This document shows positions 1 to 16,866 of a stretch of DNA of 64,000 nucleotides, one piece after another (position 1 is the first letter of the stretch; the number at the start of each line of letters is the position of its first letter). The notes below the pieces were generated by a model, which had not been told where the DNA came from, did not search any database, and was given only the letters and a program-made list of their open reading frames with translations. The DNA is from a virus: IMG/VR virus record IMGVR_UViG_3300017717_002521, positions 27,140-91,139 of that record, one strand, 5' to 3'. A program made the position numbers and the translations under genes.

Positions 1-221
1 TAGCCGAAGATGATCCTTTTAAAGAATCTTTTCTTAAAATGAATGAAGCAGGTGTAGCTCAAGTAAGAATAGTACCTGCTACAGGAGCTGAAAGATTTTC
101 TCAATTTATTTACGATAAAGTAAATCCCTTTATAAAAGAAGAAACTCAAGGTAGAGTAAAAATATCAAAAGTAGAATTTAGAGAACACGGTAAAAACTCA
201 GCAATATATGAGCCTAGGTAG
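1..221 (+). CDS. queD: 6-carboxytetrahydropterin synthase, C-terminal part (5'-truncated by window edge)
   Basis: Frame open from base 3 (AEDDPF...VPATGAERF...VEFREHGKNSAIY), typical of phage-type QueD C-termini; overlaps queE. Confidence 0.8.
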   Translation, partial: AEDDPFKESFLKMNEAGVAQVRIVPATGAERFSQFIYDKVNPFIKEETQGRVKISKVEFREHGKNSAIYEPR

Positions 222-984
222 AATAGAAGACTACAATAAAAATTTACCAATAGTAGAAGTATATACTGCAGTACAATCGGAAGGTTCAAGACAAGGTTTT
301 CCTACTATTGTTATTAGAACTACTGGTTGCACTCATAGGTGTTACTTCGGTGAAGGTGGCTGGTGTGATAGCTGGTATACAAGTATTCATCCAGAAAAAG
401 GTAAGTTTAATTTTAATGACATTATTAAAGCATATGATGATAATCCTCATATATCAGAAATGATGTTAACTGGTGGTTCTCCTACTATGCATGGTAAACT
501 TGTAAATGAACTTACACATTTTGCTAATGAAAGAGATATCTTTATTACAATAGAGAATGAAGGTAGTCATTTTTTACCTACTGACTATCCTATAGATTTA
601 CTTTCTATTAGTCCTAAGTTTAGTAACTCTATTCCTCAACTAGGAGTAGAAACTCCTCAAGGTAAGATTGTAGATGAAAAAATGATTAAACAGCATAATA
701 AGTTTAGACTTAATAAAGATGCTATAAAAAAGTCAATAGAGTATCATAAGGATTATCATATTAAACCTGTATTAGATAAAGATTTAAGGATTTATGGTGA
801 AGTTTATAAATTCTTAGAAGAGTTAGAGATACCTAATGAAAAAGTTTGGTGTATGCCTGCAGGTGATGATAGAGAATCTTTAATGGAAAGCTACCCAGTT
901 GTTATGGACTTTGTTAGAGATAAAGGATATAGATTTACTGGTAGAGCACATATTATGGCGTTTAATACTGAAAGAGAAGTATAA
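208..984 (+). CDS. queE: 7-carboxy-7-deazaguanine synthase (radical SAM)
   Basis: VQSEG..G, RTTGCTHRC..CDS (extended CxxxC..C), LTGGSP, SISPK motifs. Confidence 0.9.
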   Translation: MSLGRIEDYNKNLPIVEVYTAVQSEGSRQGFPTIVIRTTGCTHRCYFGEGGWCDSWYTSIHPEKGKFNFNDIIKAYDDNPHISEMMLTGGSPTMHGKLVNELTHFANERDIFITIENEGSHFLPTDYPIDLLSISPKFSNSIPQLGVETPQGKIVDEKMIKQHNKFRLNKDAIKKSIEYHKDYHIKPVLDKDLRIYGEVYKFLEELEIPNEKVWCMPAGDDRESLMESYPVVMDFVRDKGYRFTGRAHIMAFNTEREV

Positions 985-1155
985 ATGGAAGATACGTGGA
1001 ACGAAATAGAAGAGCATCTATCAGTTATACACGGTAATTTAGGTATATGCTGTCAGGAGTATTGCGATGCCCCTAATGCAATATACAGTTTAGAAAAATT
1101 AACAGAATTATTAATAAAAATTAGAGAAAAAGATGGCACAATACACGGTGATTAA
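985..1155 (+). CDS. small hypothetical protein (56 aa)
   Basis: ATG directly after queE stop; fills the gap; translated by hand. Confidence 0.55.
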   Translation: MEDTWNEIEEHLSVIHGNLGICCQEYCDAPNAIYSLEKLTELLIKIREKDGTIHGD

Positions 1156-1345
1156 AATGCTTAAGAAGGAATTCGAAGCAAACAGAGAAAAAGCTTTACT
1201 CACACTAGAGTTACTAACTCAACATCCTGCTGGTATTGGTGATCACTCTACAGAGGATTTCTATAAAAATGCAACTGAAGCTATTGTAGCTTTGGCCGAG
1301 GCTGAAGACGTATTAGAGACCATAGAAAGACATTTTGCAGAATGA
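1133..1345 (+). CDS. hypothetical phage protein
   Basis: ORF track; PAGIGDH motif. Confidence 0.6.
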   Translation: MAQYTVIKMLKKEFEANREKALLTLELLTQHPAGIGDHSTEDFYKNATEAIVALAEAEDVLETIERHFAE

Positions 1346-1584
1346 AACTACCAGTAATAAGAAAATTAAGTGAGTTCTCGTTAACTGAAATCAATAACTC
1401 AATTAAGTTATTAGAATCTATAACAGATTCAAGAGGAATTACTGAAAATGAGCTTGATGCATTAGGAGAAATTTTATCTAATCTTTATGGAGCTCAAAAC
1501 GTAAGAGAGTCTGTAATGAGAGGTTTAAAAAGAACTGATGCATTAAATAATTTTATGAAACGTGTAACATCAGTAGGTAAATGA
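1342..1584 (+). CDS. Bacteroidota-type conserved small protein
   Basis: MKLPVI...ELDALGEILSNLYGA...ALNNFMKRV resembles a small Flavobacteriia family. Confidence 0.6.
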   Translation: MKLPVIRKLSEFSLTEINNSIKLLESITDSRGITENELDALGEILSNLYGAQNVRESVMRGLKRTDALNNFMKRVTSVGK

Positions 1585-1889
1585 GTTATATTATAGGTAA
1601 ACCATGTGAAGCAACTTGTGATACTGCCTGTGTAGCAGTTTGCCCAGTTAACTGTATACATGGTCCTATAGATATTGATGGAGCAGGTCAAGAAGTATCA
1701 GGTATGGAAATAGGTCCTACCGATATGCTTTACATCAATCCAGACGAATGTATTGACTGTGGAGCTTGTTTGCCGGAATGTCCAGTTGAAGCTATTTATG
1801 ATAGTGAAGAAGAGGCTATTGAAAAAGATGGTACTGACACATACGTAAAGAGAAATTATAACTTTTTTGGCTTACAATATAATGTATAA
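1581..1889 (+). CDS. dicluster (7Fe/8Fe-type) ferredoxin
   Basis: ACVAVCPVNCI and ECIDCGACLPECP motifs. Confidence 0.9.
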   Translation: MSYIIGKPCEATCDTACVAVCPVNCIHGPIDIDGAGQEVSGMEIGPTDMLYINPDECIDCGACLPECPVEAIYDSEEEAIEKDGTDTYVKRNYNFFGLQYNV

Positions 1890-2247
1890 GTATAAAGCAA
1901 AATTAGTAAGGGTTGTAGACGGCGACACTGCCGATGTTATGATAGACCTTGGGTTTAACGTTTGGACTAAACAAAGATTAAGGTTCAAAGGAGTTGATAC
2001 TTGGGAAAAAAGAACTCGAGATAAAGAAGAAAAAATAAGAGGTCTAGCTGCTACTGCATTTACTACAGAATATTTAGAAAAAAATAATGGACTGTTTACT
2101 ATTCAATCATATGGAGTGGGTAAATATGGAAGAGTATTAGCAGAAATTTTTATAGAAGGAGAAAAGAAATCTCTAAATGAGTTATTATTAGAAAATGGCC
2201 ACGCTTATGTCTACGATGGTGGCAAGAAAAAAGTATTTCAAGGATGA
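1882..2247 (+). CDS. thermonuclease (SNase-like)
   Basis: RVVDGDT, RLRFKGVDT, KYGRVLA, LLENGHA; ATG at 1882 preferred. Confidence 0.85.
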   Translation: MYKYKAKLVRVVDGDTADVMIDLGFNVWTKQRLRFKGVDTWEKRTRDKEEKIRGLAATAFTTEYLEKNNGLFTIQSYGVGKYGRVLAEIFIEGEKKSLNELLLENGHAYVYDGGKKKVFQG

Positions 2248-2357
2248 CAAAACCAGAAATAGTTCAACTTATAGAAGAAAAGCTACAAAAAGTTGAATGT
2301 TCGAATTCATTTCCTTACATTATTGATGAAAGGATATGGACAACTACTGTAGCCTAA
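2244..2357 (+). CDS. small hypothetical protein (37 aa)
   Basis: ATGA overlap with nuclease stop; translated by hand. Confidence 0.4.
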   Translation: MTKPEIVQLIEEKLQKVECSNSFPYIIDERIWTTTVA

Positions 2358-2403
2358 AATGTTATGTTAATGTTTAACCTTAATTTAATCTAAATCAACG
2401 AAA

Positions 2404-4878
2404 ATGAGAAAACTCGTTACAGTGCTGTTAATGTTTTTAGCAGTTGGAGCTTACGCTCAAGAAACGAGTACTGATTCTAAGACCATCTTAGATGTAAACT
2501 TAGAAGAAGTTGTTGTATCGTCTAGAGTTATTGATGTCGCAAAAGAAAGAGAGACACCAATTGCAGTTAGTACGATCTCAGCACAAGAAGTACTCCTTAA
2601 AGTAGGAAACCAAGAGTTTCCAGAAATTATGAACAAGACACCTGGAGTGTATGCTACTAAACAAGGAGGAGGATACGGTGATAGTCGTATTTCTTTAAGA
2701 GGTTTCGATCAGCGTAATACTTCTTTCCTTATTAACGGTCAACCCGTTAATGATATGGAAAATGGTTGGGTTTATTGGTCAAACTGGCAAGGATTGACAG
2801 ACGTGACGTCTAGCATCCAAATCCAACGTGGTCTTGGTGCCACATCGTTAGCAGTTCCTTCAGTCGGTGGAACTGTTTCTATTTTCACTAAGAGTGCAGA
2901 GAAAGCTCAAGGTGGGTCTATTACTCAAATGGTAGGTAACGACGGTTACATTAAAACAACCGCTCTTTACAATACTGGAGTAAATGACAAAGGATGGTCT
3001 TCTTCTTATTTATTGACTAAATGGTCTGGTAACGGATATATTTACAATACTTCAGGAGCTGGTTGGACTTATTTTGCATCTGTTGGTTACACACCAGAAG
3101 GTTCAAAACATAGCCTAAACTTATCAGTTTTAGGTGCTGGACAATGGCATCATCAAAGAGATGTTTGGGTATCTATTAGAGATTACCAGAACTTTGGTAA
3201 AGCCGGTATTGATCAGAGATGGAATACTAACGGTGGAACGTTAAATGGTAGTGAGTATAACTTACGTAGAAACTTCTACAATAAACCTCTTGCTACTCTA
3301 AACTGGGATTGGGATATTTCAGAAAACGTTCAATTAAATACATCTGTATACGGTTCAGCCGGAAGAGGTGGAGGAACAGGTCCTAGAGGTAGAAACTATT
3401 ATGAAGGATCTATCGATATGTTACCTTTCCGTAAGGATCTAACAGAACACTACCTAGAAGATGGTAAAGGAACTAGAAATGCTGATGGTACTATTAACTA
3501 TGACGCAGTAGTTGCTCATAACTCACAATACGAAGTAGGGTCTCATAATGATAAAGATTACGCTAGAAACGTATTAGTACGAAGAGCATCTATGAACTCT
3601 CATAACTGGATTGGAGCTATCTCTAAGCTTAATATCCAGAAAGGTAGTATGAGATATTCATTAGGATTAGATCTTAGGGATTACACAGGTTATCACTACA
3701 GAGCAATGAATGATCTATTAGGTCTTAATCAATATGCTTCTACTGGTAACCAAAACTTAAGTACTCAACTATATAATTCATCTGATTTAATATCAGCTAA
3801 CCCATTTAGAGGTACTAATATTGGTGATAATGAAGCAAAGATTGCTTATTATAATATTGGATTTGTAAAATGGGCTGGATTTAACGGATTAGTAGAATAT
3901 GCTGGTGATAAGATTACTGCAGTACTACAAGCCGGAGCATCTAACCAACAGTTCCAAAGAGAAGATAGATTTGCAAACGTAGATAATCCTATTTCTGATA
4001 AAGCTAACTTAGGTGGTGGATATCTTAAAGGAGGATTAAACTATAACTTTACTGAAAAATCTAACGTATTTGTAAACGCTGGATTTATTGACCGTCAGCC
4101 TTTATTTGACGCAGTATTCCCTAACTTTGGAAATGACGTTAATCCAGACCTACAAAATGAACGTATCGAATCATTTGAGATTGGGTATGGTTATATAGGT
4201 AAGAGATTAAGACTAAATGTTAATGCATATAACACTAACTGGGGTAATAGATTTGTTTCTAGAAGTTTATCTAACCAACAAGGTGTAGATGGTACAGCTC
4301 AGTTTAGAAATATTGATGTAACACATAAAGGTTTCGAAGCTGAAGGTACTTACACAGTAGGAGGTACTAAGCTTAGAGGTATGCTATCTATTGGGGATTG
4401 GACTTATACTAAAGACTTTGAAGCAGAGTTATTTGATGAGAATCAACAATCTATCGGTACTGGTAAACTTTACTTAAAAGGAGCTAAAGTAGGAGATGCT
4501 GCACAAACTACAGCATTATTAGGTATTGATCAGAAGATTGGGTCGAACATTAGAGTTGATCTAGATTACAGATTTGTAGATAACCTATACGCTGACTATA
4601 GTATTACTGATTCAGCTTTTACTTCTCCTGATAATGATGGAGCGTTAAAACTACCTTCATTCGGTTTATTAGATTTAGGAGCTACATTTTATGCTAATAA
4701 TGGATGGTCGTTAAGAGCGAATATTAATAACTTATTAGATGAAACTTATATTGCAGAGTCTAATAGTAATATTCATACAGATGCTGATTCCACTACTTGG
4801 AACGGTGTTGATGTTAGAAATAGTGTTTGGTTCGGCTTCGGTAGAACTTGGAACGTTTCTCTCAAATATAAATTTTAA
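2404..4878 (+). CDS. TonB-dependent outer-membrane receptor
   Basis: Signal peptide AYA|Q, TonB box LEEVVV, plug (TPGV, LRGFD, INGQP, IQIQRG), C-terminal NNLLD...GRTWNVSLKYKF. Confidence 0.92.
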   Translation: MRKLVTVLLMFLAVGAYAQETSTDSKTILDVNLEEVVVSSRVIDVAKERETPIAVSTISAQEVLLKVGNQEFPEIMNKTPGVYATKQGGGYGDSRISLRGFDQRNTSFLINGQPVNDMENGWVYWSNWQGLTDVTSSIQIQRGLGATSLAVPSVGGTVSIFTKSAEKAQGGSITQMVGNDGYIKTTALYNTGVNDKGWSSSYLLTKWSGNGYIYNTSGAGWTYFASVGYTPEGSKHSLNLSVLGAGQWHHQRDVWVSIRDYQNFGKAGIDQRWNTNGGTLNGSEYNLRRNFYNKPLATLNWDWDISENVQLNTSVYGSAGRGGGTGPRGRNYYEGSIDMLPFRKDLTEHYLEDGKGTRNADGTINYDAVVAHNSQYEVGSHNDKDYARNVLVRRASMNSHNWIGAISKLNIQKGSMRYSLGLDLRDYTGYHYRAMNDLLGLNQYASTGNQNLSTQLYNSSDLISANPFRGTNIGDNEAKIAYYNIGFVKWAGFNGLVEYAGDKITAVLQAGASNQQFQREDRFANVDNPISDKANLGGGYLKGGLNYNFTEKSNVFVNAGFIDRQPLFDAVFPNFGNDVNPDLQNERIESFEIGYGYIGKRLRLNVNAYNTNWGNRFVSRSLSNQQGVDGTAQFRNIDVTHKGFEAEGTYTVGGTKLRGMLSIGDWTYTKDFEAELFDENQQSIGTGKLYLKGAKVGDAAQTTALLGIDQKIGSNIRVDLDYRFVDNLYADYSITDSAFTSPDNDGALKLPSFGLLDLGATFYANNGWSLRANINNLLDETYIAESNSNIHTDADSTTWNGVDVRNSVWFGFGRTWNVSLKYKF

Positions 4879-4880
4879 TT

Positions 4881-4907
4881 AAAGGGGGCTTCGGCCCCTT
4901 TTTTTTT
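4881..4907 (+). terminator. intrinsic terminator
   Basis: GGGGC-TTCG-GCCCC plus T9. Confidence 0.9.
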
Positions 4908-4912
4908 CTTAT

Positions 4913-5158
4913 ATGGATTGGGATATAGTATTTACGTTTATAATAGTAGGAACGGTTTTATTCTTCTATCAATTTGGACAAGATATTTTTGAGAAAAGTA
5001 AAATGTTCAAACGTCATAAAGCTAAAGGAGAAGATAGATGGAAATGGGCAACTACCCCGCCTTATTTTACTTTTAAAAAAATTTTATATTGGGTATTTCT
5101 AGCTATAGTTTTAACAGTTACCCTATACTTAGGGTTTAAAATAGAAACAGAATTTTAA
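4913..5158 (+). CDS. small two-TM membrane protein
   Basis: two hydrophobic segments. Confidence 0.55.
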   Translation: MDWDIVFTFIIVGTVLFFYQFGQDIFEKSKMFKRHKAKGEDRWKWATTPPYFTFKKILYWVFLAIVLTVTLYLGFKIETEF

Positions 5159-5950
5159 ATGAAAAAATTAAATTTTGCAGATTGGGTAGGAATGGGTTTT
5201 ATTATTATAATGATAATAGTATTTCTTCTTATACCTTCTCCCGCCAAAGCAGATTGGGGTAAAACAGGACATAGGGTTATAGGACAAATAGCACAAGATA
5301 ACTTAACTCCCAAAGCCCAAAAAGAAATATCAGATTTACTATACGGCGAAACATTAGCTACAGTTAGTACATGGGCAGACGAGATTAGATCTGACTCTTC
5401 TTATGACAGTTACAAAGTATGGCATTACGTTAATATGCCTTTAGATAAAAAATATGAAGAAGTAGAACATACTCAAGACAATGTAGTTATAGGTATTCAA
5501 AAATGTATAGCAGTTTTAAAAGATAATTCAGCAAGTAAAGAAGAAAAAATTTTTCATTTACGATTTTTAGTACATTTAGTTGGTGATATTCATCAACCTT
5601 TACACGTAGGTAGAGCAGAAGACTACGGCGGAAATAAAATATATGTAGAGTTTTTTAAAGACGGAACTAATATACATAGAGTATGGGATACCGATATGAT
5701 TGAAAACTTTAATATGAGTTATACTGAAATATCCGAATATCTACAGTCATATAAAAAACAAGATTTTGCTCAAGGAGACGCAATATGCTGGGCGAACGAA
5801 TCTCAACAAATAGTTAAGAAAGTTTATGAAATAGAAGTTGGAGAACAGCTTTCATATTCTTATATTTACAGTAACTTCTATATAGTAAAAGATAGGTTAT
5901 ATAGAGCAGGTATCAGATTAGCTAATTTATTAAACTCAATATATGTCTAA
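5159..5950 (+). CDS. S1/P1 nuclease, exported
   Basis: signal peptide then WGKTGH; WADEIR, WHYVN, HLVGDIHQPLH, HRVWD. Confidence 0.92.
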   Translation: MKKLNFADWVGMGFIIIMIIVFLLIPSPAKADWGKTGHRVIGQIAQDNLTPKAQKEISDLLYGETLATVSTWADEIRSDSSYDSYKVWHYVNMPLDKKYEEVEHTQDNVVIGIQKCIAVLKDNSASKEEKIFHLRFLVHLVGDIHQPLHVGRAEDYGGNKIYVEFFKDGTNIHRVWDTDMIENFNMSYTEISEYLQSYKKQDFAQGDAICWANESQQIVKKVYEIEVGEQLSYSYIYSNFYIVKDRLYRAGIRLANLLNSIYV

Positions 5951-6161
5951 AGAACTACTTTACAAGATTTTCGTTGTCTTCATCGGTACAGGTTGCATGA
6001 TGGTCGGACCATTTTTCGTTAACTTCCTACTAGGTAAAATATTATCTGTTATTGGGTTAGCATTACTAACAGTTCAAACTCAAAGAACTAAATCTTATAA
6101 TCTATCTCTACTTAATGTAGTAGGTATATGCGGTTACCTATATAGCATCTTTACTCAATGA
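5943..6161 (+). CDS. small membrane protein
   Basis: hydrophobic throughout. Confidence 0.55.
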   Translation: MSKELLYKIFVVFIGTGCMMVGPFFVNFLLGKILSVIGLALLTVQTQRTKSYNLSLLNVVGICGYLYSIFTQ

Positions 6162-6691
6162 GCAAGTTAATTAATTTATTTGGAGGCCCCGGAATAGGAA
6201 AAAGTGGAATTGCAGCAGGTTTAACATATGAATTAAAAAGGAAGCATATAAGTTGTAACAACCCTTATGAGTTCCCTAAAAAACTGGCATGGGATAAAAA
6301 CTATCCAGCTATACAAGATCAGTTATATGTATTTGCTAATCAACATAGAGGTATAGCAGAGTGTTACAATAAAGTAGACTATATTATCATTGACTCTCCC
6401 GTAATGTTTTCTACTATCTATCATAGCTACTATACAAAAGGATACCCAGCAGAAAACTATGGACAATCGTTTCATAATATGGTAGTTGATCTTCATAATA
6501 CTTACGATAATCTTAACATACTACTAAAGAGATCGAATACAGAGATTAATGAAGCAGAAAGATTTCAAGATCTTAAACAATCTATAGAGATTGATGAATT
6601 ATGTAAAGCTAAGTTAGAGGAACATAATTTACCGTACGTTGAAATAGAGGTAAATGATGATACAGTAAATGAAATATTAAAATTGTTATAA
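6158..6691 (+). CDS. P-loop NTPase / nucleotide kinase-like (AAA_28/NadR-like)
   Basis: GGPGIGKS Walker A; IIDSP. Confidence 0.75.
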   Translation: MSKLINLFGGPGIGKSGIAAGLTYELKRKHISCNNPYEFPKKLAWDKNYPAIQDQLYVFANQHRGIAECYNKVDYIIIDSPVMFSTIYHSYYTKGYPAENYGQSFHNMVVDLHNTYDNLNILLKRSNTEINEAERFQDLKQSIEIDELCKAKLEEHNLPYVEIEVNDDTVNEILKLL

Positions 6692-7110
6692 TGGAAAAAA
6701 ATAAGTTATATTTAAGTTGGAAATGGGTAGACGATCAAATTAATAAAATAGGAGATAAACTTGAAAGTATAGATTTAGAATTTGTATCTGGTATACCCAG
6801 AGGAGGATTAATACCTGCAGTTATGATGTCACATGCATACGGTATTAAGTATATTAGCTACTCTTCAGCTAAAATGCTACCATTAGAATTAAGAAAGAAA
6901 ACCATAGTAATAGATGATATATCAGATACTGGGTTGACTATGTCTGAAGCTGATAAATTAAAATTTATTACATCTAGTCTCACCACAAGAGTAGGTACTA
7001 AAACGTTGCCTAGGCTTACGGGTGAATTGATAAGTGACGATCGCTGGTTAGTATTTCCTTGGGAAACTTTAGATAGTATTCCTGTTCAAGATTATTTGAT
7101 GAATTCATAA
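6691..7110 (+). CDS. type I purine phosphoribosyltransferase-like
   Basis: GIPRGGL, VIDDISDTGLT, WLVFPWE as in Gpt-like enzymes. Confidence 0.85.
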   Translation: MEKNKLYLSWKWVDDQINKIGDKLESIDLEFVSGIPRGGLIPAVMMSHAYGIKYISYSSAKMLPLELRKKTIVIDDISDTGLTMSEADKLKFITSSLTTRVGTKTLPRLTGELISDDRWLVFPWETLDSIPVQDYLMNS

Positions 7111-7116: not shown

Positions 7117-7836
7117 ATGAAAAATGCTGTAGTAGTTGTTGATATTAAACAGAAAGGCATACATTCTCTTTTACAGTATAACATAAATGCACTTAAACAA
7201 TATAGTCAACGAACCAGATCTGAATTAATTATTATCAGTTCTAAAATACTTGACCAGAAGTATAATCTTCATAAACAAGCTCCATATCCGTATCTTAGGT
7301 TTGAAAAAAATCAAATTTACCGTCTTTTCAAAGAATATGATCGAATATTAAGATTGGACAGTGATACTATGATAATGCAGAACTGCCCTAATTATTTTGA
7401 TTTAGATCCTAAGAATATGTATGTCACAAGAGAAGATGTTGGAAGTAGAAAAGAACCTAGGTTAAGACAAATAAAAACTATACAATCACAACTGGGTACT
7501 GTAGAAGGCTGGAATAGTTTCTACTTTAATAGCGGTGTCATATTAGCTTCTAGCATACATAAAGAAGCATTTAATTTAGATAATGTTGACCTGTCAAAAG
7601 TAAAAGGTGGACTTCAAGAACAAACGGTTCTTAACTGGCTTACTTTTAAATTAAAATTAAGTATCGTAGATTTAGGTCCTTATTTTAATTTTATTGAATT
7701 TTTTGAAACTGAAAATTTCGGTTTAAGAAAAAACTCCAATATAATACATTATGCTGGTAAAACAAACGATAAAAAAGTAAAAGATTTAAAAAGAGATATA
7801 ACCAACTTTAACAGTAAAAATAAAGAATTAATTTAA
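7117..7836 (+). CDS. glycosyltransferase, GT8-like
   Basis: LDSD, YFNSGV, EQTVLN, IIHYAG. Confidence 0.8.
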   Translation: MKNAVVVVDIKQKGIHSLLQYNINALKQYSQRTRSELIIISSKILDQKYNLHKQAPYPYLRFEKNQIYRLFKEYDRILRLDSDTMIMQNCPNYFDLDPKNMYVTREDVGSRKEPRLRQIKTIQSQLGTVEGWNSFYFNSGVILASSIHKEAFNLDNVDLSKVKGGLQEQTVLNWLTFKLKLSIVDLGPYFNFIEFFETENFGLRKNSNIIHYAGKTNDKKVKDLKRDITNFNSKNKELI

Positions 7837-8627: not shown

Positions 8628-9341
8628 ATGCCTAAAAAATTTATAGAAGGAACTGAATTAGTTCGTGCCGGTTTTGCTAACGGTATATCAAGTCAACTAG
8701 CAAAGAAACAACAAACTGAAGGACCTGAAGCAAGGTTAGATTCAGAAGAAAAACAAGTTATAATAGAAAATGCTGCTAAAGCATATGGAGACTTCTTAAC
8801 TGCTCTAGGATGTAATTATAAAGAAGATCCTAACTCTTCAGATACTCCAATGAGAGTAGCAAAAGCATACGTTAACGATTTATGGGCTGGAAGATATAGT
8901 CCACTAGACCGTATTACAGCATTTCCATCAGACGGTTATGACGGTATAGTTCAAGAGAGTAACATACCTGTAACGTCTATGTGTTCTCACCACCATCAAG
9001 CTATTAGAGGTACAGTAAGTATTGCTTATATAGCATCTCAAGATGGTAAAGTAGTAGGTTTATCTAAACTAAATAGAATAGTAGAGCAGTTCGGTAGAAG
9101 AGGTGCTATACAAGAACAGCTGACTGTAGCTATACATAATGCTGTAGATAAGATATGTGAAGGTAACTTAGGAGTAGCAGTACAAGTGAATGCAACTCAT
9201 GCATGTGTATCATGTAGAGGAGTAAAGCATCATAGTGCTTCAATGCAAACAGCTAAACTTACAGGTGCTTTCTTAGATGAAGATTCTGCTAAAGCAGAGT
9301 TCTACAAGAATATAGAATTAGCAAGTATATGCAAACATTAA
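8628..9341 (+). CDS. folE: GTP cyclohydrolase I
   Basis: TPMRVAK, SMCSHHH, GLSKLNR, IQEQLT, HACVSCRGV. Confidence 0.95.
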   Translation: MPKKFIEGTELVRAGFANGISSQLAKKQQTEGPEARLDSEEKQVIIENAAKAYGDFLTALGCNYKEDPNSSDTPMRVAKAYVNDLWAGRYSPLDRITAFPSDGYDGIVQESNIPVTSMCSHHHQAIRGTVSIAYIASQDGKVVGLSKLNRIVEQFGRRGAIQEQLTVAIHNAVDKICEGNLGVAVQVNATHACVSCRGVKHHSASMQTAKLTGAFLDEDSAKAEFYKNIELASICKH

Positions 9342-9345: not shown

Positions 9346-9918
9346 ATGAAAGGTAAACAATTATCACTATTTCCAGAAGAAGCAGATAACGTATGGGTTA
9401 ACGATTACGTACCGTTTGTATCTGAAGTAGAAACATTTAACGAAACATTTAACAAACCGAACAACTATGAACCAACCATCCCATCTGAAAAAGAGTGGAA
9501 ATTCGTTTATAACTTTATCCTCGAAGAACTCGAAGAATATAGAGAAGCTTGCGAACGAGGCGACATTGTGGAAGTTCTGGACGCTTTGTGCGACATTGCT
9601 TATGTTTCCATTGGGAACGGGACTATGTTACATGGCCTTAAAAATAAGATATGGCCGGCATATCAAGAGGTACAAGCTTCAAATATGTCGAAAGCTTGTT
9701 CGACTGAAGAAGAGGCCATACAGAGTGTCAGCAAAAGAAGTAAGGAACAAGGTGAGGCCTGTCATTTTGAGAAGGTTGCGGAGGGACGGTACATTGTCTA
9801 TCGTACAAGAGACAGAAAAGTAATGAAGAGTAATAATTACTTTAGACCAGACTTACAGCAGTTCTTTAGCGGTGATGATATTGTAAGAACAAGACCCCAA
9901 CAACATTCAGGAATATGA
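9346..9918 (+). CDS. MazG-like / PRA-PH-like NTP pyrophosphohydrolase
   Basis: EELEEY, EVLDALCD, EVQASNMSK, KVMKS. Confidence 0.85.
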   Translation: MKGKQLSLFPEEADNVWVNDYVPFVSEVETFNETFNKPNNYEPTIPSEKEWKFVYNFILEELEEYREACERGDIVEVLDALCDIAYVSIGNGTMLHGLKNKIWPAYQEVQASNMSKACSTEEEAIQSVSKRSKEQGEACHFEKVAEGRYIVYRTRDRKVMKSNNYFRPDLQQFFSGDDIVRTRPQQHSGI

Positions 9919-10124
9919 TTAAAATAGAAGATTTTAAAAAAGAATTTAACGGAGAATTTTACGTACCCCTCTCTATCGCTAACCAAGCAGTTAAAGAAGC
10001 TTACCAAAGCAATAAAGAGTATAATCAAATGAACAATAAGTTAGAAGATCTTAATAAACAATTAAATGATGCTATGAAAGAAATAGGAGAAGGGTTTAAA
10101 GATATGAAAAATTTAAAGTTATAA
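9915..10124 (+). CDS. hypothetical coiled-coil protein
   Basis: ORF track, coupled overlap. Confidence 0.55.
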   Translation: MIKIEDFKKEFNGEFYVPLSIANQAVKEAYQSNKEYNQMNNKLEDLNKQLNDAMKEIGEGFKDMKNLKL

Positions 10125-10127
10125 TGT

Positions 10128-10922
10128 ATGATTAAAATAGCTCATGAAGCTCCTATAGATATTTTTGACGAAGTTCAAAGGTTAACTGATTACGATTACG
10201 CTTTAGTTCATTTATTAGAGCAAAATGGTAGATATAGAGATACGTTTGAAAGAGCAGTTAAAAGAGGTAGAGAAGTTATTTTAGATAACTCTATTTTTGA
10301 GTTAGAAGAAGCATTTGAAGCTGATAGATTTGCATTATGGGTTGAAAGATTAAAACCTACTTGGTATATAGTTCCAGATGCATTGGAGAATGCTGAAAAG
10401 ACTATGGAACAAGCACTTGATTGGGTTAAAAGTTATAAAAGTATACCTGGGAAAAAAATAGGTGTTGTTCAAGGTAAAAACTATCACGAGATTGTAGCTT
10501 GTTATAAGTTTATGGACACTAGAGATATTGATATGATAGCTATTTCATTCGATTATTCGTATTATAGTGATTCTATTCCTCATCCTAACAAGTATGTTAG
10601 CTGGATGCTAGGACGTGTTAAGCTACTAGGAGATTTAGAGAGAGACGGTATAATTAATAAAGATAAACCTCATCACTTACTAGGTTGTGGATTACCTCAA
10701 GAATTTAGTTTTTATAAAAATGCTAACTATAAATGGCTCTACTCTTTAGATACTTCTAACCCAGTAGTCCACGGTCTAAAAGGTATAGAGTATGACAGAG
10801 AAGGACTTTGGTCTAAAGAATCTCAAAAGTTACATGAATTAATTAATGTACCTATAGAAGAGATTGATATTGAGAAAGTAACTAGTAATATAGAGAAGTT
10901 TAGATGGCTAACAAATGGATAA
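10128..10922 (+). CDS. dpdA: TGT-fold deazaguanine transglycosylase-like protein (DpdA-like)
   Basis: ILDNS..E, IVPD, IGVVQG, HHLLG, SLDTS TGT-like motifs; que-gene context. Confidence 0.72.
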   Translation: MIKIAHEAPIDIFDEVQRLTDYDYALVHLLEQNGRYRDTFERAVKRGREVILDNSIFELEEAFEADRFALWVERLKPTWYIVPDALENAEKTMEQALDWVKSYKSIPGKKIGVVQGKNYHEIVACYKFMDTRDIDMIAISFDYSYYSDSIPHPNKYVSWMLGRVKLLGDLERDGIINKDKPHHLLGCGLPQEFSFYKNANYKWLYSLDTSNPVVHGLKGIEYDREGLWSKESQKLHELINVPIEEIDIEKVTSNIEKFRWLTNG

Positions 10923-11431
10923 CATTCTTCAGTCAAACTGGAGCTGAGATAGCTGATTTATCTGAAAATATTGGAAGATGGCCTGATATTATTATTACTA
11001 ATAGTAGACCAGACCACTTAAGAACTATAGATCCTAGAATAGTAGAATACGGTTATACTGAAGTACCTAATAAACCTACAGTAAGTGATTTAGATGCTGT
11101 ATTACAAGATAATGCTGTTATAACATTACATGGTTGGTTGAGGATAATGCCTGAAGTAATATGTAATAAGTATTTGATTTATAATGGTCATCCTGGACTT
11201 ATTACTAAATATCCTGAACTTAAGGGTAAAGATCCTCAAGTAAAAGCTCATAAACTTGGACATGAAGTAGCAGGTGCAGTTATACATAAAGTAACAGCAG
11301 GAGTAGATGAAGGTAGGATTATTATGGAGGAATATTTCAATGCTACTCAGTTGGATCTTGATAGTTTATTTCGTATATTAAGAGATAGATCATTGTATAT
11401 GTGGTCTAATCTACTTAAACAGGTTTTATGA
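10904..11431 (+). CDS. PurN-like formyltransferase (DpdN-like)
   Basis: GWLRIM, NGHPGL..YP, IHKV..GVDEG; coupled to the dpdA-like gene. Confidence 0.82.
   Translation: MANKWITFFSQTGAEIADLSENIGRWPDIIITNSRPDHLRTIDPRIVEYGYTEVPNKPTVSDLDAVLQDNAVITLHGWLRIMPEVICNKYLIYNGHPGLITKYPELKGKDPQVKAHKLGHEVAGAVIHKVTAGVDEGRIIMEEYFNATQLDLDSLFRILRDRSLYMWSNLLKQVL
11351..11381 (+). promoter_or_regulatory. class 1 promoter inside formyltransferase 3' end
   Basis: TTG-N20-TATATTAA. Confidence 0.6.
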
Positions 11432-11943
11432 TAAAAAGAATAGCTTTAGTTGGAGCAAGTAGTACTGGTAAGACTACTGTTTTTGAATTACTTAAGAATA
11501 AATTACCTAAGTATGAGTTCGTAAACGAATCTACTCGTAATGTAGCTAAGTACGGATTTCCTATTAATGAGTTTGGTACTGATGCTACTCAACTTGCTAT
11601 TAGTAGCTTTCATTTAGAAGCTTTACTTAAACCTTATAATCTTATTCTAGATAGATGTTATATGGATCTTATAGTCTATACTAATCATATGGATGTTGAT
11701 GATTCTACTAAAGATTATATAGAAGAGACTTGGCATAGAGTAAAAGGAGAGTATACTCATTATATTTATTTTCCTATTGAATTTTAATCTGTAGATGATG
11801 GAGTAAGAAGTGTTAATGAGGATTGGAGAAAAGATATAGATAATGAATTTAAAAAGTATCTTGAGACTGTAAGAAAGCCTTACTTAACTATAACTGGTTC
11901 TCCTATGCAAAGGGTTAACCAAATATTAGAGTTTATAAAATGA
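11428..11943 (+). pseudogene. P-loop kinase-like (AAA_28) gene interrupted by in-frame TAA at 11785-11787
   Basis: GASSTGKTT, LDRC..D; the same frame continues SVDDGVR...ITGSPMQRV to TGA 11941-11943, overlapping the next ATG. Confidence 0.75.
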
Positions 11944-12295: not shown

Positions 12296-13201
12296 ATGAG
12301 TGAAGTTAAAAATTATGAAGCAGTAAAAGAAATTGCTTCTAAACATTTAGGTAAAGTAGGCGGTGATGGTTATAGTGATCAATACAACGCTGAATTATTA
12401 GTTAAAATACCTCGAGTATTAAATCGAGAGGGGTATGGATTAACCGGTAAAGAATTTAAAGGTGTTGATACCTGGAACGCCTATGAAGTATCAGCTATAA
12501 CTACTAAAGGTCAACCCGTTGCTGGGATGTTAAAAATAGTTTGTCCTTCTGATAGTGAATATCATGTAGAGTCAAAATCTATTAAACTATACCTTAATTC
12601 ATTTAATATGACTGAGATTGGAGATACAGCAGCTGATTGTATTACCGGCATAGAAGCTAGAGTAAAAAGAGATTTAGATGAGTTATTGGAAACTATTACT
12701 ACCATAAGCTTTTATGCTTCAGAATTTGAAACTGAACCTCTTTCTTTTGCTAATGATTATAAAGATCTAGGTGAGGAAGTTAACTTAGATTTGATAGACT
12801 TTACTGCATTTAAGTCAGATGCTACTCAATTAGAGGTAAAAGAAGAAGAAGGTGAAATAAAATTTAGATCTAATCTATTAAGGTCTAACTGTAGAGTAAC
12901 TAATCAGCCGGATTGGGGAGATGTATTTATTTATATGAAAGGAAGTAAATTACCTGTAGCTGATTCGTTAGCTAAATATATAGTAAGTCATAGGACAGTT
13001 AGTCATTTTCATGAGGAGATATGCGAAATGATATTTGCTCATCTAAGTGAAAGATTTGAACCTGAGCAATTAATGGTGTCGTGTTTGTATACTCGTAGAG
13101 GAGGAATAGATATTAATCCTATTAGAGCTACTCATAGTTATTTAATACCAGAGTTTTTTACTAACCCCGATTTTACTATTAGAAAAACTTTAAGACAGTA
13201 A
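12296..13201 (+). CDS. queF: NADPH-dependent preQ0 reductase, bimodular type
   Basis: VESKSIKLYLNSF, RSNCRVTNQPDWG, FHEEICE, YTRRGGIDINP. Confidence 0.95.
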   Translation: MSEVKNYEAVKEIASKHLGKVGGDGYSDQYNAELLVKIPRVLNREGYGLTGKEFKGVDTWNAYEVSAITTKGQPVAGMLKIVCPSDSEYHVESKSIKLYLNSFNMTEIGDTAADCITGIEARVKRDLDELLETITTISFYASEFETEPLSFANDYKDLGEEVNLDLIDFTAFKSDATQLEVKEEEGEIKFRSNLLRSNCRVTNQPDWGDVFIYMKGSKLPVADSLAKYIVSHRTVSHFHEEICEMIFAHLSERFEPEQLMVSCLYTRRGGIDINPIRATHSYLIPEFFTNPDFTIRKTLRQ

Positions 13202-13879: not shown

Positions 13880-14451
13880 TGCAAATATCGCTCAAAAAAT
13901 ATGCGCATAAATACGAATATCTTAAATTAGAGTTGGAAGAAACTCAACAAAAGGTTACTGATTATACTAAGTTATGGAATACTGAAATAGGTAAGTTTTA
14001 TTTAGATCAAAAAATCACAGCCTGGGAAAATACAGATACTGGAGAAATAAGATTTAATAACCCTAAAAATAAGAGCAAAAAAATTAAACCTGAAAAGTTA
14101 AAAAAACTCTATAGAACTCTTTCATCTATTACTCACCCAGATAAAGGAGGTTCAGAAGAAGAATTTTATTTAGTAAAAACTGATTACGAATCAGGAGATT
14201 TTATAGGATTACTTAAACATGCTGATAGTAAGAATATTAATGTAGATTTAGACGAACAAGATATTTTTCTTTTTGAGGAAACCTGTAATGATATTGAAAG
14301 TGAAATTGAAGAAAATAAAAAATCTACTGTATGGAAATATTTTAACGGAGATCTACTTCAAAAAAAAGCTATTTTAAAAGGAATAGAAAAAGAATTTAAA
14401 TTTACTTTTGAACAAAAAGATTATGATAAAATACTTAATTTAGTAGGTTAA
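13879..14451 (+). CDS. J-domain-containing protein
   Basis: LKKLYR...THPDKGG. Confidence 0.7.
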   Translation: MQISLKKYAHKYEYLKLELEETQQKVTDYTKLWNTEIGKFYLDQKITAWENTDTGEIRFNNPKNKSKKIKPEKLKKLYRTLSSITHPDKGGSEEEFYLVKTDYESGDFIGLLKHADSKNINVDLDEQDIFLFEETCNDIESEIEENKKSTVWKYFNGDLLQKKAILKGIEKEFKFTFEQKDYDKILNLVG

Positions 14452-14474
14452 CAGAGAAAATATTCTTATATTTA
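14444..14474 (+). promoter_or_regulatory. class 1 promoter for DNA polymerase
   Basis: TAG-N20-TATATTTA. Confidence 0.6.
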
Positions 14475-14493
14475 TTTTTATAAAAGGTTATAT

Positions 14494-16866
14494 ATGCAGT
14501 TAGAAAAAAAGTACTATACCGTCCAAGACTCAGAGACGTTAAAGTTAATGTTCCAACACATTGAAGAGTCAGATACTCTAGCAGTCGATACTGAAACGAC
14601 TGGTCTTAACCCTCGTAAGGATAAAATTATTGGATGGTCTATATCAGGAGATGAAGGTATTGGCTTTTATCTACCTACTCTAGTATGGAACTTCGAGCAA
14701 GGTACTTTAGACTTACAGACTATTGATGGTACTTCAACTGAAGTATTATCTAAAAACTTACTTAAGATGTTATTAGGTAAGAAGCTAGTATTTCACAACG
14801 CTTCGTTTGATGTTCAGTTTATAAAAAACTATTTCGGAGTTAATCTACTACCTGATGTTTGGGTCGATACTGGACTACTTGTTCATACAGTTTATGAAGA
14901 AGGAGCATTTGGATTTGGTAATCCATTTGGTTTGAAATCTATTGCTATAATGAATCAAGAAGCATTAGGTTTAGATGTTGAGAAAGCTGCTAACGAAGAA
15001 CAAGTTGAACTAAAAGAAAGTATTAAACGAAATGGTGGAAGCGTTACTAAAGAGAGTTTTGAAATATATAAAGCAGATTTGGATATCCTTTCTAAATATG
15101 CTAGTGCTGATACTGACCTCACACTTCGCATTTGTAATCTATATCTGGCTAAACTTAAGGAAGAAGGATTAGAAGATTTCTTTTTCAAAGATGAAGTTAT
15201 GCCTATCTATCGTGAGGTTACCGTTCCTATGGAAGCTCATGGTGTAGACTTAGATACTGAATTAATAGAGAAGATACATGGAGAGATTGTAGAAGATCAG
15301 AAAAAGAATAAAGAGATAGTAATGAAGTCTCTCTTAGCTATACCTGAAGTTAAAGAATGGGTAGTAGCTACGTCTATTGAAGCATACCCTTTTTCCCATA
15401 AAGGTAATTGGGCTCAGAGATTAGTACAAAGGTATTCTTTACCTTTACCTAAATCTGAAAAAACTGGTAAGTATTCTCTTACTGCAAAGTATATTAATGA
15501 ACTAGAAGAATCAAACGTCAAGCAATTCCTACTAACCGGGGACCATACCCTTATTGAAGACGTTGAAAAATATAGAATCTCTATGTCTCTTTGGAAAGAA
15601 TCTAATGATGGAGATTATATCAATATACAATCTAAAAAGCACTTGGGTGAAATAGTCTTCGGTTACATGGGAATTCAACCTAAAGTATCAGGTGCTAATA
15701 CTAAGTCCGGTAGAGATAAGTTCGATATGAAAATGGTTGAAGAGTTAGCGAAAACGTATCCCTGGGCAGAGAATCTTAGAGTCTATAATAAGTTACTTAA
15801 GATTAAATCTACTTACGTAGACAGGTTTAGAGACCGTCAGGAAGATGGTAGATATTACTTCTACTTTAAACAAAATGGTACTGTATCTGGTAGATATGGT
15901 TCTGACGCTCAACAGCTACCTAAACCTCTTGAAGAAGGAGAAGATGCTCCTGTGATTATGAAGTACGTTAATATTGTTAGACGTTTCTTGGTTGCCGGAA
16001 ATGGTAGGAAGGTTATTGATGCAGATTACGAATCGTTAGAGCCTCACTGCTTTGCTTCAGTAACAGGAGATAAAAAACTACAAGAGATCTTTAATAATGG
16101 ATGGGACTTTTATTCTACTGTTGCTATACAGACTGAAAAGCTAGAAGGAGTATCAGCAGATAAAAAAGCTGATAACTATCTAAAGAAACTTGATCCTGTT
16201 AAACGTAATAAAGCTAAGGCATACTCATTAGGTATTGCTTATGGAATGGAAGCTTATGCTCTTAAAATGTCTCTTAACGTAGATCAAAAGACTGCTGAAG
16301 GATTAGTAAAAGGTTACTTAGATGGGTTTCCTCAACTCAAGGAATGGAGAGAAAGATCAAGAGAACAAGTCAAAGCTAATGGTAGAATACAGAACTATGT
16401 AGGACGTATTCGTCACTTACCTAAAGTTCAAAGACTCTATGATAAGTTTGAAGATCGTATGATGGATTGGAGATTTAGAAAAGAGTTAGAGACTAGGATA
16501 CCTCCTAAATATATTAAGAAAGACGGTGAGATAGTTAAGACTGTATCTCCTAGGGATCAAGTAACTCAAGCATATAGAGATTACCGTAACGGACTTAATA
16601 ACTGTCTTAACTTTCAGTTACAGTCATTAGCAGCAGCGGTAGTTAACAGGGCTGCATTAAAGATAAACTTGAAAGCTAAAGAGTTAGGTATAGATGCTCT
16701 ATGTCAAGCACAAGTACATGACCAGTTGATTATAAACGTAGATGAGAAAGATGCAGAAATGTTTGCTCCTTACGTACAAGAGATAATGGAGAATACTACT
16801 AAGTTACCTGGAGTAACTTTGAAAGCACCTCCTGAGATAGCTAATAACTGGGCAGAAGGACATTAA
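14494..16866 (+). CDS. polA: family A DNA polymerase with 3'-5' exonuclease
   Basis: DTETTG, FHNASFD, YASAD; GTVSGR, DADYESLE, RNKAKAYSLGIAYG, QVHDQ. Confidence 0.95.
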   Translation: MQLEKKYYTVQDSETLKLMFQHIEESDTLAVDTETTGLNPRKDKIIGWSISGDEGIGFYLPTLVWNFEQGTLDLQTIDGTSTEVLSKNLLKMLLGKKLVFHNASFDVQFIKNYFGVNLLPDVWVDTGLLVHTVYEEGAFGFGNPFGLKSIAIMNQEALGLDVEKAANEEQVELKESIKRNGGSVTKESFEIYKADLDILSKYASADTDLTLRICNLYLAKLKEEGLEDFFFKDEVMPIYREVTVPMEAHGVDLDTELIEKIHGEIVEDQKKNKEIVMKSLLAIPEVKEWVVATSIEAYPFSHKGNWAQRLVQRYSLPLPKSEKTGKYSLTAKYINELEESNVKQFLLTGDHTLIEDVEKYRISMSLWKESNDGDYINIQSKKHLGEIVFGYMGIQPKVSGANTKSGRDKFDMKMVEELAKTYPWAENLRVYNKLLKIKSTYVDRFRDRQEDGRYYFYFKQNGTVSGRYGSDAQQLPKPLEEGEDAPVIMKYVNIVRRFLVAGNGRKVIDADYESLEPHCFASVTGDKKLQEIFNNGWDFYSTVAIQTEKLEGVSADKKADNYLKKLDPVKRNKAKAYSLGIAYGMEAYALKMSLNVDQKTAEGLVKGYLDGFPQLKEWRERSREQVKANGRIQNYVGRIRHLPKVQRLYDKFEDRMMDWRFRKELETRIPPKYIKKDGEIVKTVSPRDQVTQAYRDYRNGLNNCLNFQLQSLAAAVVNRAALKINLKAKELGIDALCQAQVHDQLIINVDEKDAEMFAPYVQEIMENTTKLPGVTLKAPPEIANNWAEGH

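Follow-up and report, generated by a model that had tools for sequence, protein, structure and literature searches.

A nucleoside-kinase-like companion of the transglycosylase DpdA3 in an uncultured relative of phage immuto tentatively suggests base exchange ahead of DNA replication

Complete replacement of dG by a 7-deazaguanine has been measured in Flavobacterium phage immuto, where DpdA3 and DpdN give fdPreQ1 and dG is wholly lost (PMC10516641). Campylobacter phage CP220, which carries dADG, and Cellulophaga phage phiST, which carries dDG, also encode DpdA3 and reach 100% replacement, against the 0.1-30% reported for bacterial DpdA/DpdB and phage DpdA1/DpdA2 (PMC10516641). The authors who described fdPreQ1 concluded that the base is inserted post-replicatively; their attempts to show in E. 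coli that DpdA3 acts on DNA failed, and they noted ADG as a nucleoside in Campylobacter cells under infection (PMC10516641). The words "kinase" and "phosphoribosyl" do not occur in the main text of that paper, and neither gene is discussed there (PMC10516641).

The DNA analyzed here, called the window, is a stretch of 64,000 nucleotides (positions 27,140 to 91,139) of the 91-kb viral contig IMGVR_UViG_3300017717_002521. Homology and synteny indicate that it belongs to an uncultured relative of immuto with the immuto-type fdPreQ1 gene set (Table 1). Nucleotide identity to immuto is 72% and the gene order is kept, both genomes sharing QueD-QueE-PRTase-FolE-MazG-DpdA3-DpdN-kinase-QueF-PolA. Amino acid identity is 54-76% for the que and dpd genes, the MazG-like gene, Kin2 and PolA (72% for QueD, 72% for QueE and 54% for DpdN), and 37% for the PRTase. 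The modification of immuto, fdPreQ1, is expected for the window phage too. Profile matches and a structure model of DpdA3 recovered, in place and on the plus strand, every gene named in an earlier sequence-only reading of this DNA, whose mention of a Flavobacterium phage making formylated dPreQ1 with DpdA3 and DpdN was also right, the phage being immuto (PMC10516641). The same reading had presumed queC to lie upstream, and it was found there when looked for; queD starts 246 nt ahead of the window. The window differs from immuto by a nonsense codon in the kinase gene, a direct overlap of dpdA3 and dpdN (19 nt) and insertions. The latter separate queE from the PRTase gene by 5.7 kb and the PRTase gene from folE by 1.5 kb, are missing from almost all relatives, and carry ferredoxin, SNase, TonB-dependent receptor, S1/P1 nuclease, Kin1, GT8 and one unknown gene.

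Table 1. Features of the 7-deazaguanine cluster (window coordinates unless marked as contig)
Feature	Position	Strand	Match or remark
queD (6-carboxytetrahydropterin synthase), 3' part	1-221	+	phrog_2389 9e-14
queE (7-carboxy-7-deazaguanine synthase, radical SAM)	208-984	+	phrog_2076 2e-47, Radical_SAM 2e-5
Kin1, AAA_28 P-loop kinase	6158-6691	+	AAA_28 1e-11, phrog_2107
Gpt-like 6-oxopurine phosphoribosyltransferase (PRTase)	6691-7110	+	PDB 1vdm 9e-13
folE (GTP cyclohydrolase I)	8628-9341	+	PF01227 7e-42
MazG-like all-alpha NTP pyrophosphohydrolase	9346-9918	+	PRA-PH 1e-9, phrog_671 2e-28
dpdA3, minimal TGT-fold guanine/7-deazaguanine transglycosylase	10128-10922	+	68% identical to immuto DpdA
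dpdN, PurN-like formyltransferase	10904-11431	+	Formyl_trans_N 1e-9
Kin2, NadR/deoxynucleoside-kinase-like kinase	11428-11943	+	AAA_28 4e-10; in-frame TAA at 11785-11787
queF (preQ0 reductase, two-domain type)	12296-13201	+	QueF_N 5e-27, QueF 2e-17
PolA, family A DNA polymerase with 3'-5' exonuclease domain	14494-16866	+	DNA_pol_A 5e-55, exo1 2e-12
queC	contig 19014-19805, about 7.3-8 kb upstream of the window, same 91-kb contig		PF06508 2e-41

[quoted passage not shown] Its aminomethyl group would be formylated by DpdN, a minimal enzyme of the PurN type, and DpdA3, a bare TGT-type barrel with catalytic aspartates, would swap guanine for the 7-deazaguanine base. In all 34 relatives folE and DpdA3 are no more than 10 kb apart, and QueF scores 229 bits against TIGR03138, under the cut-off of 293. 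DpdN matches GAR transformylases in the PDB (7e-7) and has the N-x-H and D catalytic motif. A Pfam search with DpdA3 returned no match; its AlphaFold2 model (pLDDT 97) matches archaeosine and bacterial TGT with Z 18 and an rmsd of 3.0 Å over 230-234 residues. Residues D53, D84 and D208 show little or no variation, and the HLLG and DTSNP motifs align with Leu236 and Asp256 of bacterial DpdA. The barrel, the aspartates and the HLLG and D-x-S/T-x-P motifs are common to bacterial DpdA/DpdB, phage DpdA1/DpdA2 and DpdA3. The crystal construct of bacterial DpdA (436 aa) is about 170 residues longer, however, and the large Ins8 insertion makes up 30% of that protein; DpdA3, with 264 aa (two cysteines, pI 5.4) and just 56 residues past the nucleophile Asp, has no room for it. 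No other protein of the cluster is as conserved as DpdA3 (77-89% identity over more than 100 clusters), and natural fusions of DpdA3 to QueF (P0272, P0274, P0275) and to DpdN (P0151, P0231) tie the free-base enzymes to it.

Our best reading, which we hold tentatively and at somewhat below an even chance, is that the base is exchanged on a free nucleoside or nucleotide before the DNA is copied. That a nucleoside/nucleotide kinase travels with the base-swapping enzyme suggests such an order but does not prove it. Kin2 is the most faithful companion and, among the accessory genes, the sole core partner of DpdA3: it lies within 10 kb in 34 of 34 IMG/VR relatives with full flanks, nearly always one or two genes away, and has homologues in 21 of the 32 cultured DpdA3 records against 93 of about 50,700 others, counts that overstate the evidence because the relatives share ancestry and are not phylogenetically independent. 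A Kin2 orthologue adjoins DpdA3 in CP220 and its relatives, even though DpdA3 is only 39% identical there (28% in phiST), and the order DpdA3-Kin2-QueF recurs in contigs binned with Spirochaetia, Rhodobacteraceae and Bacilli; the role suggested earlier for this kinase gained support. Non-homologous P-loop kinases adjoin DpdA3 in phiST (AAA_18) and Bacillus phage BSTP12, and in Brevundimonas phage StAshley a T4-type dNMP kinase adjoins FolE and the PRTase; against the reading, four DpdA3 loci of the Clostridia type lack a kinase in the surrounding 6 kb. The model of an intact Kin2 orthologue (L007, pLDDT 91.6) matches the RNK domain of NadR (Z 17.6), dCK/dGK (Z about 16) and TMPK (Z about 15.4), so that Kin2 is, as modeled, a small-molecule kinase nearest to nucleoside kinases. 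The shortness of DpdA3, which leaves no room for Ins8, the failed E. coli attempts and the ADG nucleoside likewise count in favor of this reading.

Under this preferred reading, DpdA3 would act on a free deoxynucleoside or deoxynucleotide instead of finished DNA, Kin2 would next phosphorylate the exchange product or its monophosphate, general kinases would finish the triphosphate, and the neighboring DNA polymerase would incorporate it, which, if true, would account for the full replacement of dG. The window PolA is 68% identical to the immuto polymerase, the other cultured-phage matches listed being at most about 28% identical. DpdA3 directly adjoins DNA polymerases of families A, B or C in six lineages, an arrangement that would suit a co-replicative DNA enzyme equally well. 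Pre-replicative pathways are known for hydroxymethyl-dC in T4 (dCTPase, dCMP hydroxymethylase and dNMP kinase) and for 2-aminoadenine in S-2L/phiVC8 (MazZ, PurZ, DatZ and DpoZ). The logic of the window is alike, in that the modifying enzyme has a dedicated kinase and a polymerase as neighbors and replacement is complete, but no enzyme removing the canonical dNTP, here dGTP, was identified in the cluster. To our knowledge, all characterized TGT-superfamily enzymes work on a polynucleotide (tRNA or DNA), and we know of no member acting on a nucleoside or nucleotide; a transglycosylase as modifier at that level would be unprecedented. The state of Kin2 in the window contig itself, where the gene is broken, also speaks against exchange at the nucleoside level.

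CP220 and phiST resemble the window in having a kinase next to DpdA3 and a Gpt-like PRTase in the genome, and phiST also in the order FolE-MazG-x-kinase-DpdA3, after which comes a polymerase. Unlike the window, both make another final base and lack QueF and DpdN; the kinase (AAA_18) and MazG (PF03819) of phiST belong to other families, and CP220, which encodes a trimeric dUTPase, carries an HD + AAA_33 protein where the window has the MazG-like gene.

The MazG-like enzyme, for which removal of dGTP had been suggested, is probably a stand-in for dUTPase and not a dGTPase. Among 33 related records, 23 have the MazG-like gene without dUTPase, 9 have dUTPase without the MazG-like gene and 1 has neither; the two are mutually exclusive, with the same split in cultured lineages, and this perfect complementarity to trimeric dUTPase favors dUTP over dGTP as the substrate. 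The PRTase matches Sulfolobus GpT-2 (1e-7) and E. coli XGPRT (about 1e-3) and scores 35.7 bits against the NCBIfam xanthine PRTase, below the cut-off of 138. Among 50,697 cultured phage records, all 22 with a PRTase homologue, in four lineages, carry 7-deazaguanine genes, and the gene sits directly upstream of FolE in 25 of 34 relatives. However, several relatives hold a canonical Hpt in its slot (2e-29 to solved HGPRTs), and two nearly complete genomes that encode DpdA3 (94% complete; 100% with terminal repeats) yielded no PRTase. Guanine salvage is therefore more likely than an obligatory step, and the PRTase may act as a helper, returning expelled guanine through GMP and GTP to FolE.

The published model has DpdA3 as a DNA transglycosylase that replaces guanine after replication with fpreQ1, or with preQ1 later formylated by DpdN, in replicated or nascent phage DNA, perhaps next to the polymerase at the fork; the sole part of the PRTase and kinases would be to recycle the guanine, expelled in stoichiometric amounts, to GTP for FolE, or they would serve ordinary nucleotide metabolism. 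We regard this as quite possible, if not the reading we would choose. Bacterial DpdA works on DNA via Asp95 and Asp256, both kept in DpdA3, adjacency to the polymerase suits coupling to the replisome, the interchangeable or empty PRTase slot is what a salvage helper would show, and the MazG-like gene looks like a replacement for dUTPase. Members of the Kin2 family, annotated as thymidylate kinase, also occur in 89 records of Streptomyces phages that have no dpd genes, so Kin2 could be a housekeeping kinase. Yet Kin2 is nearer to nucleoside kinases and TMPK than to guanylate kinase. It is also still present in genomes without the PRTase, so guanine recycling fails to account for it. The inactivity in E. 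coli and the missing Ins8 also count against the model, as does the fact that, unlike with bacterial DpdA/DpdB, the locus showed no DpdB-like ATPase; complete replacement through base exchange on DNA is not known from experiment.

A route along the lines of the sequence-only reading appears unlikely. In it the PRTase would join preQ1 or fpreQ1 to PRPP, giving a ribonucleotide, kinases would make the diphosphate and the phage RNR would reduce it to the deoxy form; dGTP would be destroyed by the MazG-like enzyme, the modified dNTP would be built in by PolA, and DpdA3 would only patch residual G. ToyH and TubE, PRTases from the pathways to toyocamycin and tubercidin, accept 7-deazaguanine bases, the contig codes for an RNR large subunit, and the PRTase keeps company with 7-deazaguanine genes and FolE, all in its favor. 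Against it stand the genomes with Hpt or no PRTase, the complementarity of the MazG-like gene to dUTPase and the near redundancy it would impose on DpdA3. Its first kinase, Kin1, was not supported either: of 80 related loci, just one, L006, has this sporadic accessory gene (95% identical), and its homologues in cultured phages are in jumbo phages without dpdA3. The pre-replicative idea thus keeps Kin2 and the polymerase neighbor, is weakened as to the PRTase and MazG-like gene, and loses Kin1.

Kin2 is not a 119-aa gene, as was considered, but a 171-codon frame cut by the stop, through which the alignment with the immuto kinase continues (60-70% identity beyond it). That the cluster is defective, the contig being a non-viable or decaying variant with an impaired pathway, is very unlikely: the stop stands against 62 of 62 intact relatives and no tRNA, hence no suppressor, was found in the 91-kb contig, but the remaining pathway genes are all intact, Kin1 is on hand as a second AAA_28 kinase, and the 51 post-stop codons show much the same conservation as the remainder of Kin2 and no second lesion, which argues that the stop is very recent, belongs to a minority variant or stems from an assembly error. 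In the window contig, Kin1, whose stop overlaps the PRTase start, may replace the broken Kin2, or the stop may be an assembly variant.

The window forms the final 64 kb of a 91,139-bp IMG/VR viral contig with an estimated completeness of ~55% (CheckV); its GC content is ~31% and nearly all ORFs of at least 100 aa lie on the + strand. [quoted passage not shown] The reading had also pointed, correctly, to a DpdA3 plus DpdN pair in a Flavobacterium phage: both the transglycosylase DpdA3 and the formyltransferase DpdN are named in PMC10516641, where fdPreQ1, the formylated preQ1 deoxynucleoside, was measured in place of virion dG for phage immuto only. The que/dpd region is 72% identical to that of immuto at the nucleotide level. 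At the protein level, the que/dpd genes, the MazG-like gene, the second kinase (Kin2) and PolA share 54-76% identity with immuto (68% for the polymerase itself), the PRTase 37%. DpdA3 is 68% identical to immuto DpdA; DpdN, whose gene overlaps dpdA3 by 19 nt, is 54% identical to its immuto counterpart, matches PF00551 (1e-9) and keeps the N-x-H and D motif. Judged by sequence, the contig is a further uncultured member of the published immuto-type fdPreQ1 system, with a predicted pathway to the base fpreQ1 and a competent base-exchange enzyme shown by homology.

Positions of the features discussed and, for pathway genes, the number of related loci (of 34 with full 10-kb flanks) with a tblastn match
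Feature	Position	Strand	Related loci
FolE			34/34
QueF			34/34
QueE			29/34
QueD			28/34
QueC	contig 19014-19805		20/34
PolA			27/34
DpdA3	window 10128-10922	+	
DpdN	window 10904-11431	+	32/34
Kin2, AAA_28 kinase	window, from 11428		34/34
In-frame TAA in Kin2	window 11785-11787		
End of the conserved Kin2 frame	window 11943		
Kin1, AAA_28 kinase	window 6158-6691		0/34
PRTase	window 6691-7110		20/34
MazG-like gene	window 9346-9918		27/34
Insertions relative to relatives	window 985-6690 (block); 7117-8530 (genes)		
Staphylococcal-nuclease (SNase) homologue	window 1867-2247	+	
S1/P1 nuclease	window 5159-5950	+	
TonB-dependent receptor	window 2404-4878	+	
Scattered glycosyltransferases	window 7117-7836; 17570-18298; 37060-40584		
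RuBisCO-like protein	window 45676-46860	+	
609-aa HINT protein	window 59639-61468	+	
Short family A polymerase-like ORF	L004:1648-2973		
Glycosyltransferases and carbamoyltransferases, RNR gene to queC	L004:11332-13886; L005:1021-4412, 10093-11826		
DpdA3/polymerase adjacencies	L097:6001-9640; L099:5983-9332; L095:786-4391; L090:5896-8692; L003:665-4068; L086:8548-13298		
Intein-interrupted family B polymerase	L099:6876-9332		
Kinase with C-terminal extension	L006:6123-7079		
GNAT protein between DpdN and Kin2	L096:6139-7359		

DpdA3 has no Pfam match. As a sequence-only search of solved structures (PDB) found nothing and a profile search gave a marginal match to bacterial DpdA only (E 0.47), a fold search was needed. 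The AlphaFold2 model (pLDDT 97, built from an alignment of 47 diverse homologues) superposed on archaeosine TGT 1iq8 (Z 18.1, rmsd 3.0 Å, 234 aligned residues) and on the Z. mobilis TGT (Z 17.9), with 230-234 of the 264 residues aligned, which points to a TGT-type (beta/alpha)8 barrel. Of the conserved aspartates, D53 and D84 do not vary in the 47 sequences, and D208 varies little if at all. D208, within DTSNP, aligned to the SIDS motif of 7ui4 that contains Asp256; in Salmonella DpdA, the HLLG and DTSNP motifs correspond to Leu236 and to Asp256, the nucleophile, and D53 and D84 are probably the counterparts of Asp95 and Asp130. The three would supply the nucleophile, general acid/base and base-recognising Asp of the superfamily. 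The precedent of the TGT/DpdA family speaks for the published conclusion that DpdA3 exchanges the base in DNA. DpdA3, however, is an acidic protein (pI 5.4) with two cysteines and just 56 residues beyond the nucleophile Asp, and has neither the zinc subdomain of TGT nor the large Ins8 insertion of bacterial DpdA, features used to hold a polynucleotide; in bacterial DpdA the insertion makes up 30% of the protein, and DpdA3 is too short to contain one of that kind. The test of DpdA3 in E. coli by the authors of PMC10516641 failed, with no DNA activity seen. In metagenomes the family is very common, with 3,643 proteins among 90% clusters (E <= 1e-3) and 1,571 representatives at 50% identity, while a search of 185,579 prokaryotic species, one genome each, gave only 10 matches, all on contigs of metagenome-assembled genomes.

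To place these genes in context, 80 IMG/VR loci were fetched around DpdA3 homologues of 51-77% identity. An iterated profile search raised the tblastn counts to 29/34 for QueD, 31/34 for QueE and 25/34 for the PRTase, and the commonest gene order was QueD-QueE-PRTase-FolE-MazG-DpdA3-DpdN-Kin2-QueF-PolA. The counts mark Kin2 as a core gene and Kin1 as sporadic; taken over related contigs, they do not represent independent events and so are no proof of either mechanism. Within the insertions that set the window apart from its relatives, a ferredoxin and the SNase do have counterparts among relatives, the SNase often at another place and, in about a dozen relatives, directly after Kin2. This SNase and the S1/P1 nuclease (1e-65) could degrade host DNA to mononucleotides or nucleosides feeding the pathway. 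The cluster also holds a full-length TonB-dependent outer-membrane receptor (824 aa, Plug and beta-barrel), an unusual phage cargo with a 71%-identical copy in one related phage contig (L008).

Both kinases had been proposed as members of the pathway. Kin1 loses that place, being found in 1 of the 80 loci and having its cultured homologues in jumbo phages without dpdA3, whereas the proposal is supported for Kin2, present throughout the relatives and next to DpdA3 in Campylobacter phages. CP220-group Campylobacter phages, in which dADG replaces dG fully, have the Kin2 orthologue immediately after a DpdA3 39-41% identical to ours. Cellulophaga phage phiST, with dDG at full replacement, has the order FolE-MazG-x-AAA_18 kinase-DpdA3-x-DNA polymerase III alpha; in Bacillus phage BSTP12 the gene before a DpdA3-like one, which overlaps PolA, encodes a P-loop protein; and in Brevundimonas phage StAshley the genes after a DpdA3-like one (hhalign 96.9%) are PolA, RNR, a T4-type dNMP kinase, FolE and the PRTase. 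The order DpdA3-(DpdN)-Kin2-QueF recurs in contigs from Spirochaetia, Rhodobacteraceae and Bacilli bins; no kinase was found within 6 kb of DpdA3 at four Clostridia-type loci. A Kin2 profile matched deoxynucleoside kinases and, at 6e-7, NadR ribosylnicotinamide kinase. A model (pLDDT 91.6) made from an intact orthologue ranked the NadR kinase domain (Z 17.6) above human dCK/dGK (~16) and thymidylate kinases (~15.4), which marks Kin2 as a small-molecule kinase with more likeness to nucleoside kinases than guanylate kinase. In having a kinase of its own tied to the modifying enzyme, the system resembles pre-replicative base-replacement pathways of the T4 hmC / S-2L Z type. Members of the Kin2 family are also encoded in 89 Streptomyces phage records that have no dpd genes, and such relatives in unmodified phages favor exchange in DNA. 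The Kin2 frame of the window is interrupted by an in-frame TAA, beyond which the conserved frame runs on; the gene is intact in 62/62 relatives examined, and a suppressor tRNA was rejected as the 91-kb contig has no tRNA genes.

In six lineages DpdA3 or a DpdA3-like gene immediately precedes the gene for a phage DNA polymerase, be it of family A, B or C. Among the cultured-phage matches listed for the window polymerase, none but immuto exceeds ~28% identity, so that asking whether the accessory genes are equally common in relatives lacking dpd genes rests on collection-wide counts. Near the contig start, a second, short family A polymerase-like ORF (441 aa) was noticed beside the 790-aa PolA of the window. 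Among DpdA3 homologues, natural fusions join DpdA3 to DpdN (P0151, P0231) or to QueF (P0272, P0274, P0275). Since QueF acts on the free base, the latter imply that DpdA3 receives a free base, and this holds under every model. None of the long forms retrieved was a kinase fusion: apart from fusions with DpdN or QueF, they had an intein, a motif of homing endonucleases or extensions without an assignment. The intein (LAGLIDADG and intein splicing domains) lies inside homologue P0273, and a family B polymerase neighboring DpdA3 in a Clostridia-type phage is intein-interrupted as well.

The MazG-like enzyme had been read as a remover of dGTP. Our analysis of 33 related DpdA3 records uncovered instead a mutual exclusion with the trimeric dUTPase (PF00692): the MazG-like gene alone was found in 23 records, PF00692 alone in nine (two of the nine matches being below the family cut-off) and neither in one, a fragment rated 24% complete. 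Thus 9/10 records without the MazG-like gene have the dUTPase, and the two were never seen together. Among cultured lineages, immuto and phiST are of the MazG type without dUTPase and CP220 and StAshley the reverse. Given this complementarity in 33 records and four cultured lineages, dGTP removal was rejected as the leading reading; the simplest one is that the enzyme would hydrolyze dUTP, feeding the phage ThyA. Homologues were also found in Tenacibaculum and many jumbo phages that lack dpdA3, and profile and sequence searches of solved structures gave no significant relative. That no dGTP-removing enzyme was identified is a further point for exchange in DNA.

The PRTase is Gpt-like, matching P. 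horikoshii purine PRTase (1vdm, 9e-13) and E. coli XGPRT (~1e-3), with the type I PRPP-binding motif V-I-D-D-I-S-D-T-G kept across five lineages; at 35.7 bits it falls well short of the cut-off (138) of the xanthine-guanine PRTase equivalog NF006613 and belongs to a divergent phage-specific branch. Its association with 7-deazaguanine phages is striking, as all 22 matches in 50,697 cultured phage records have 7-deazaguanine genes (immuto, 4; phiST group, 5; CP220 group, 11; and two Brevundimonas phages, in which it adjoins FolE). Guanine salvage would be an obvious benefit, as DpdA3 frees one guanine per base inserted, each new 7-deazaguanine costs one GTP and replacement is total. An ordinary Hpt (2e-29 to solved HGPRTs) fills the slot upstream of FolE in several relatives, and whole-record searches found no PRTase in a 94%-complete genome nor in a terminal-repeat-bounded genome rated 100% complete. 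Together with the salvage benefit, this argues against an obligatory biosynthetic step and for a predicted salvage-type enzyme, frequent yet dispensable, which again suits exchange in DNA.

Base exchange on a free nucleoside or nucleotide, to which we give close to an even chance, is favored by a kinase that faithfully accompanies DpdA3, the adjacent polymerase, replacement that is total, the minimal build of the enzyme and the failed E. coli test. The fuller model, contrary to the published conclusion, is that DpdA3 is not a DNA transglycosylase but the first TGT-fold enzyme to swap guanine for 7-deazaguanine on a free deoxynucleoside or deoxynucleotide. The product would be phosphorylated by the co-inherited NadR/dNK-like kinase Kin2 and then polymerized, so that the full replacement of G seen in immuto-, phiST- and CP220-type phages would be pre-replicative; we propose this tentatively, as somewhat under an even chance. 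Exchange in DNA by DpdA3, with the four points in its favor, is a serious contender that we judge well possible but not probable. The PRTase-first route is the least supported and improbable. Of the earlier pre-replicative inference, which is partly supported, the Kin2 linkage gains support, Kin1 drops out, and the PRTase step and the MazG-like enzyme as dGTP remover are weakened. A pre-replicative route for DpdA3 was discussed nowhere in the literature searched, in which DpdA3 as this enzyme appeared only in PMC10516641. The comparative pattern, in which DpdA3 travels with a nucleoside or nucleotide kinase and adjoins the replicative polymerase, the PRTase is optional and the MazG-like gene behaves as a dUTPase substitute, reduces the question of 100% G replacement by 7-deazaguanine in any phage to a few direct enzyme assays. 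If true, the free-substrate model would offer a new enzymatic route to 7-deaza-dGTP analogues.

Variants were noticed around DpdN. It is absent from the closest relative (L006), where the kinase has a C-terminal extension with a weak GNAT match (E 0.002, below the Pfam cut-off), and in a Bacilli-bin contig (L096) a gene for a GNAT protein (3e-6) separates DpdN from Kin2. In DpdA3 homologue P0226 a GNAT-like motif was seen in the C-terminal extension by eye only, Pfam finding no family there. The three occurrences hint at an N-acyl-preQ1 variant of the modification; a GNAT domain common to this extension and that of the L006 kinase was rejected, as the two show no similarity.

Elsewhere in the window, a 609-aa protein matches Hint/intein/pretoxin-HINT over its C-terminal 130 residues, with no family match for the N-terminal 470. 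A RuBisCO-like large-subunit protein, which scored 190 bits with the type III model (cut-off 497) and matched OiaX and MtnW more weakly, is encoded within a 15-kb island together with glycosyltransferases, a sugar nucleotidyltransferase, an epimerase/dehydratase and a UDP-glucose dehydrogenase. Further glycosyltransferases (GT8, GT64-like and two GT1/GT4) are scattered, one of them between the PRTase and folE. Upstream of the window, the stretch that separates the RNR gene from queC encodes two GlcNAc-type glycosyltransferases, a pair of NodU/CmcH-type carbamoyltransferases and an HtrL/GT2 protein, which may be part of a second pathway of glycan or DNA decoration.
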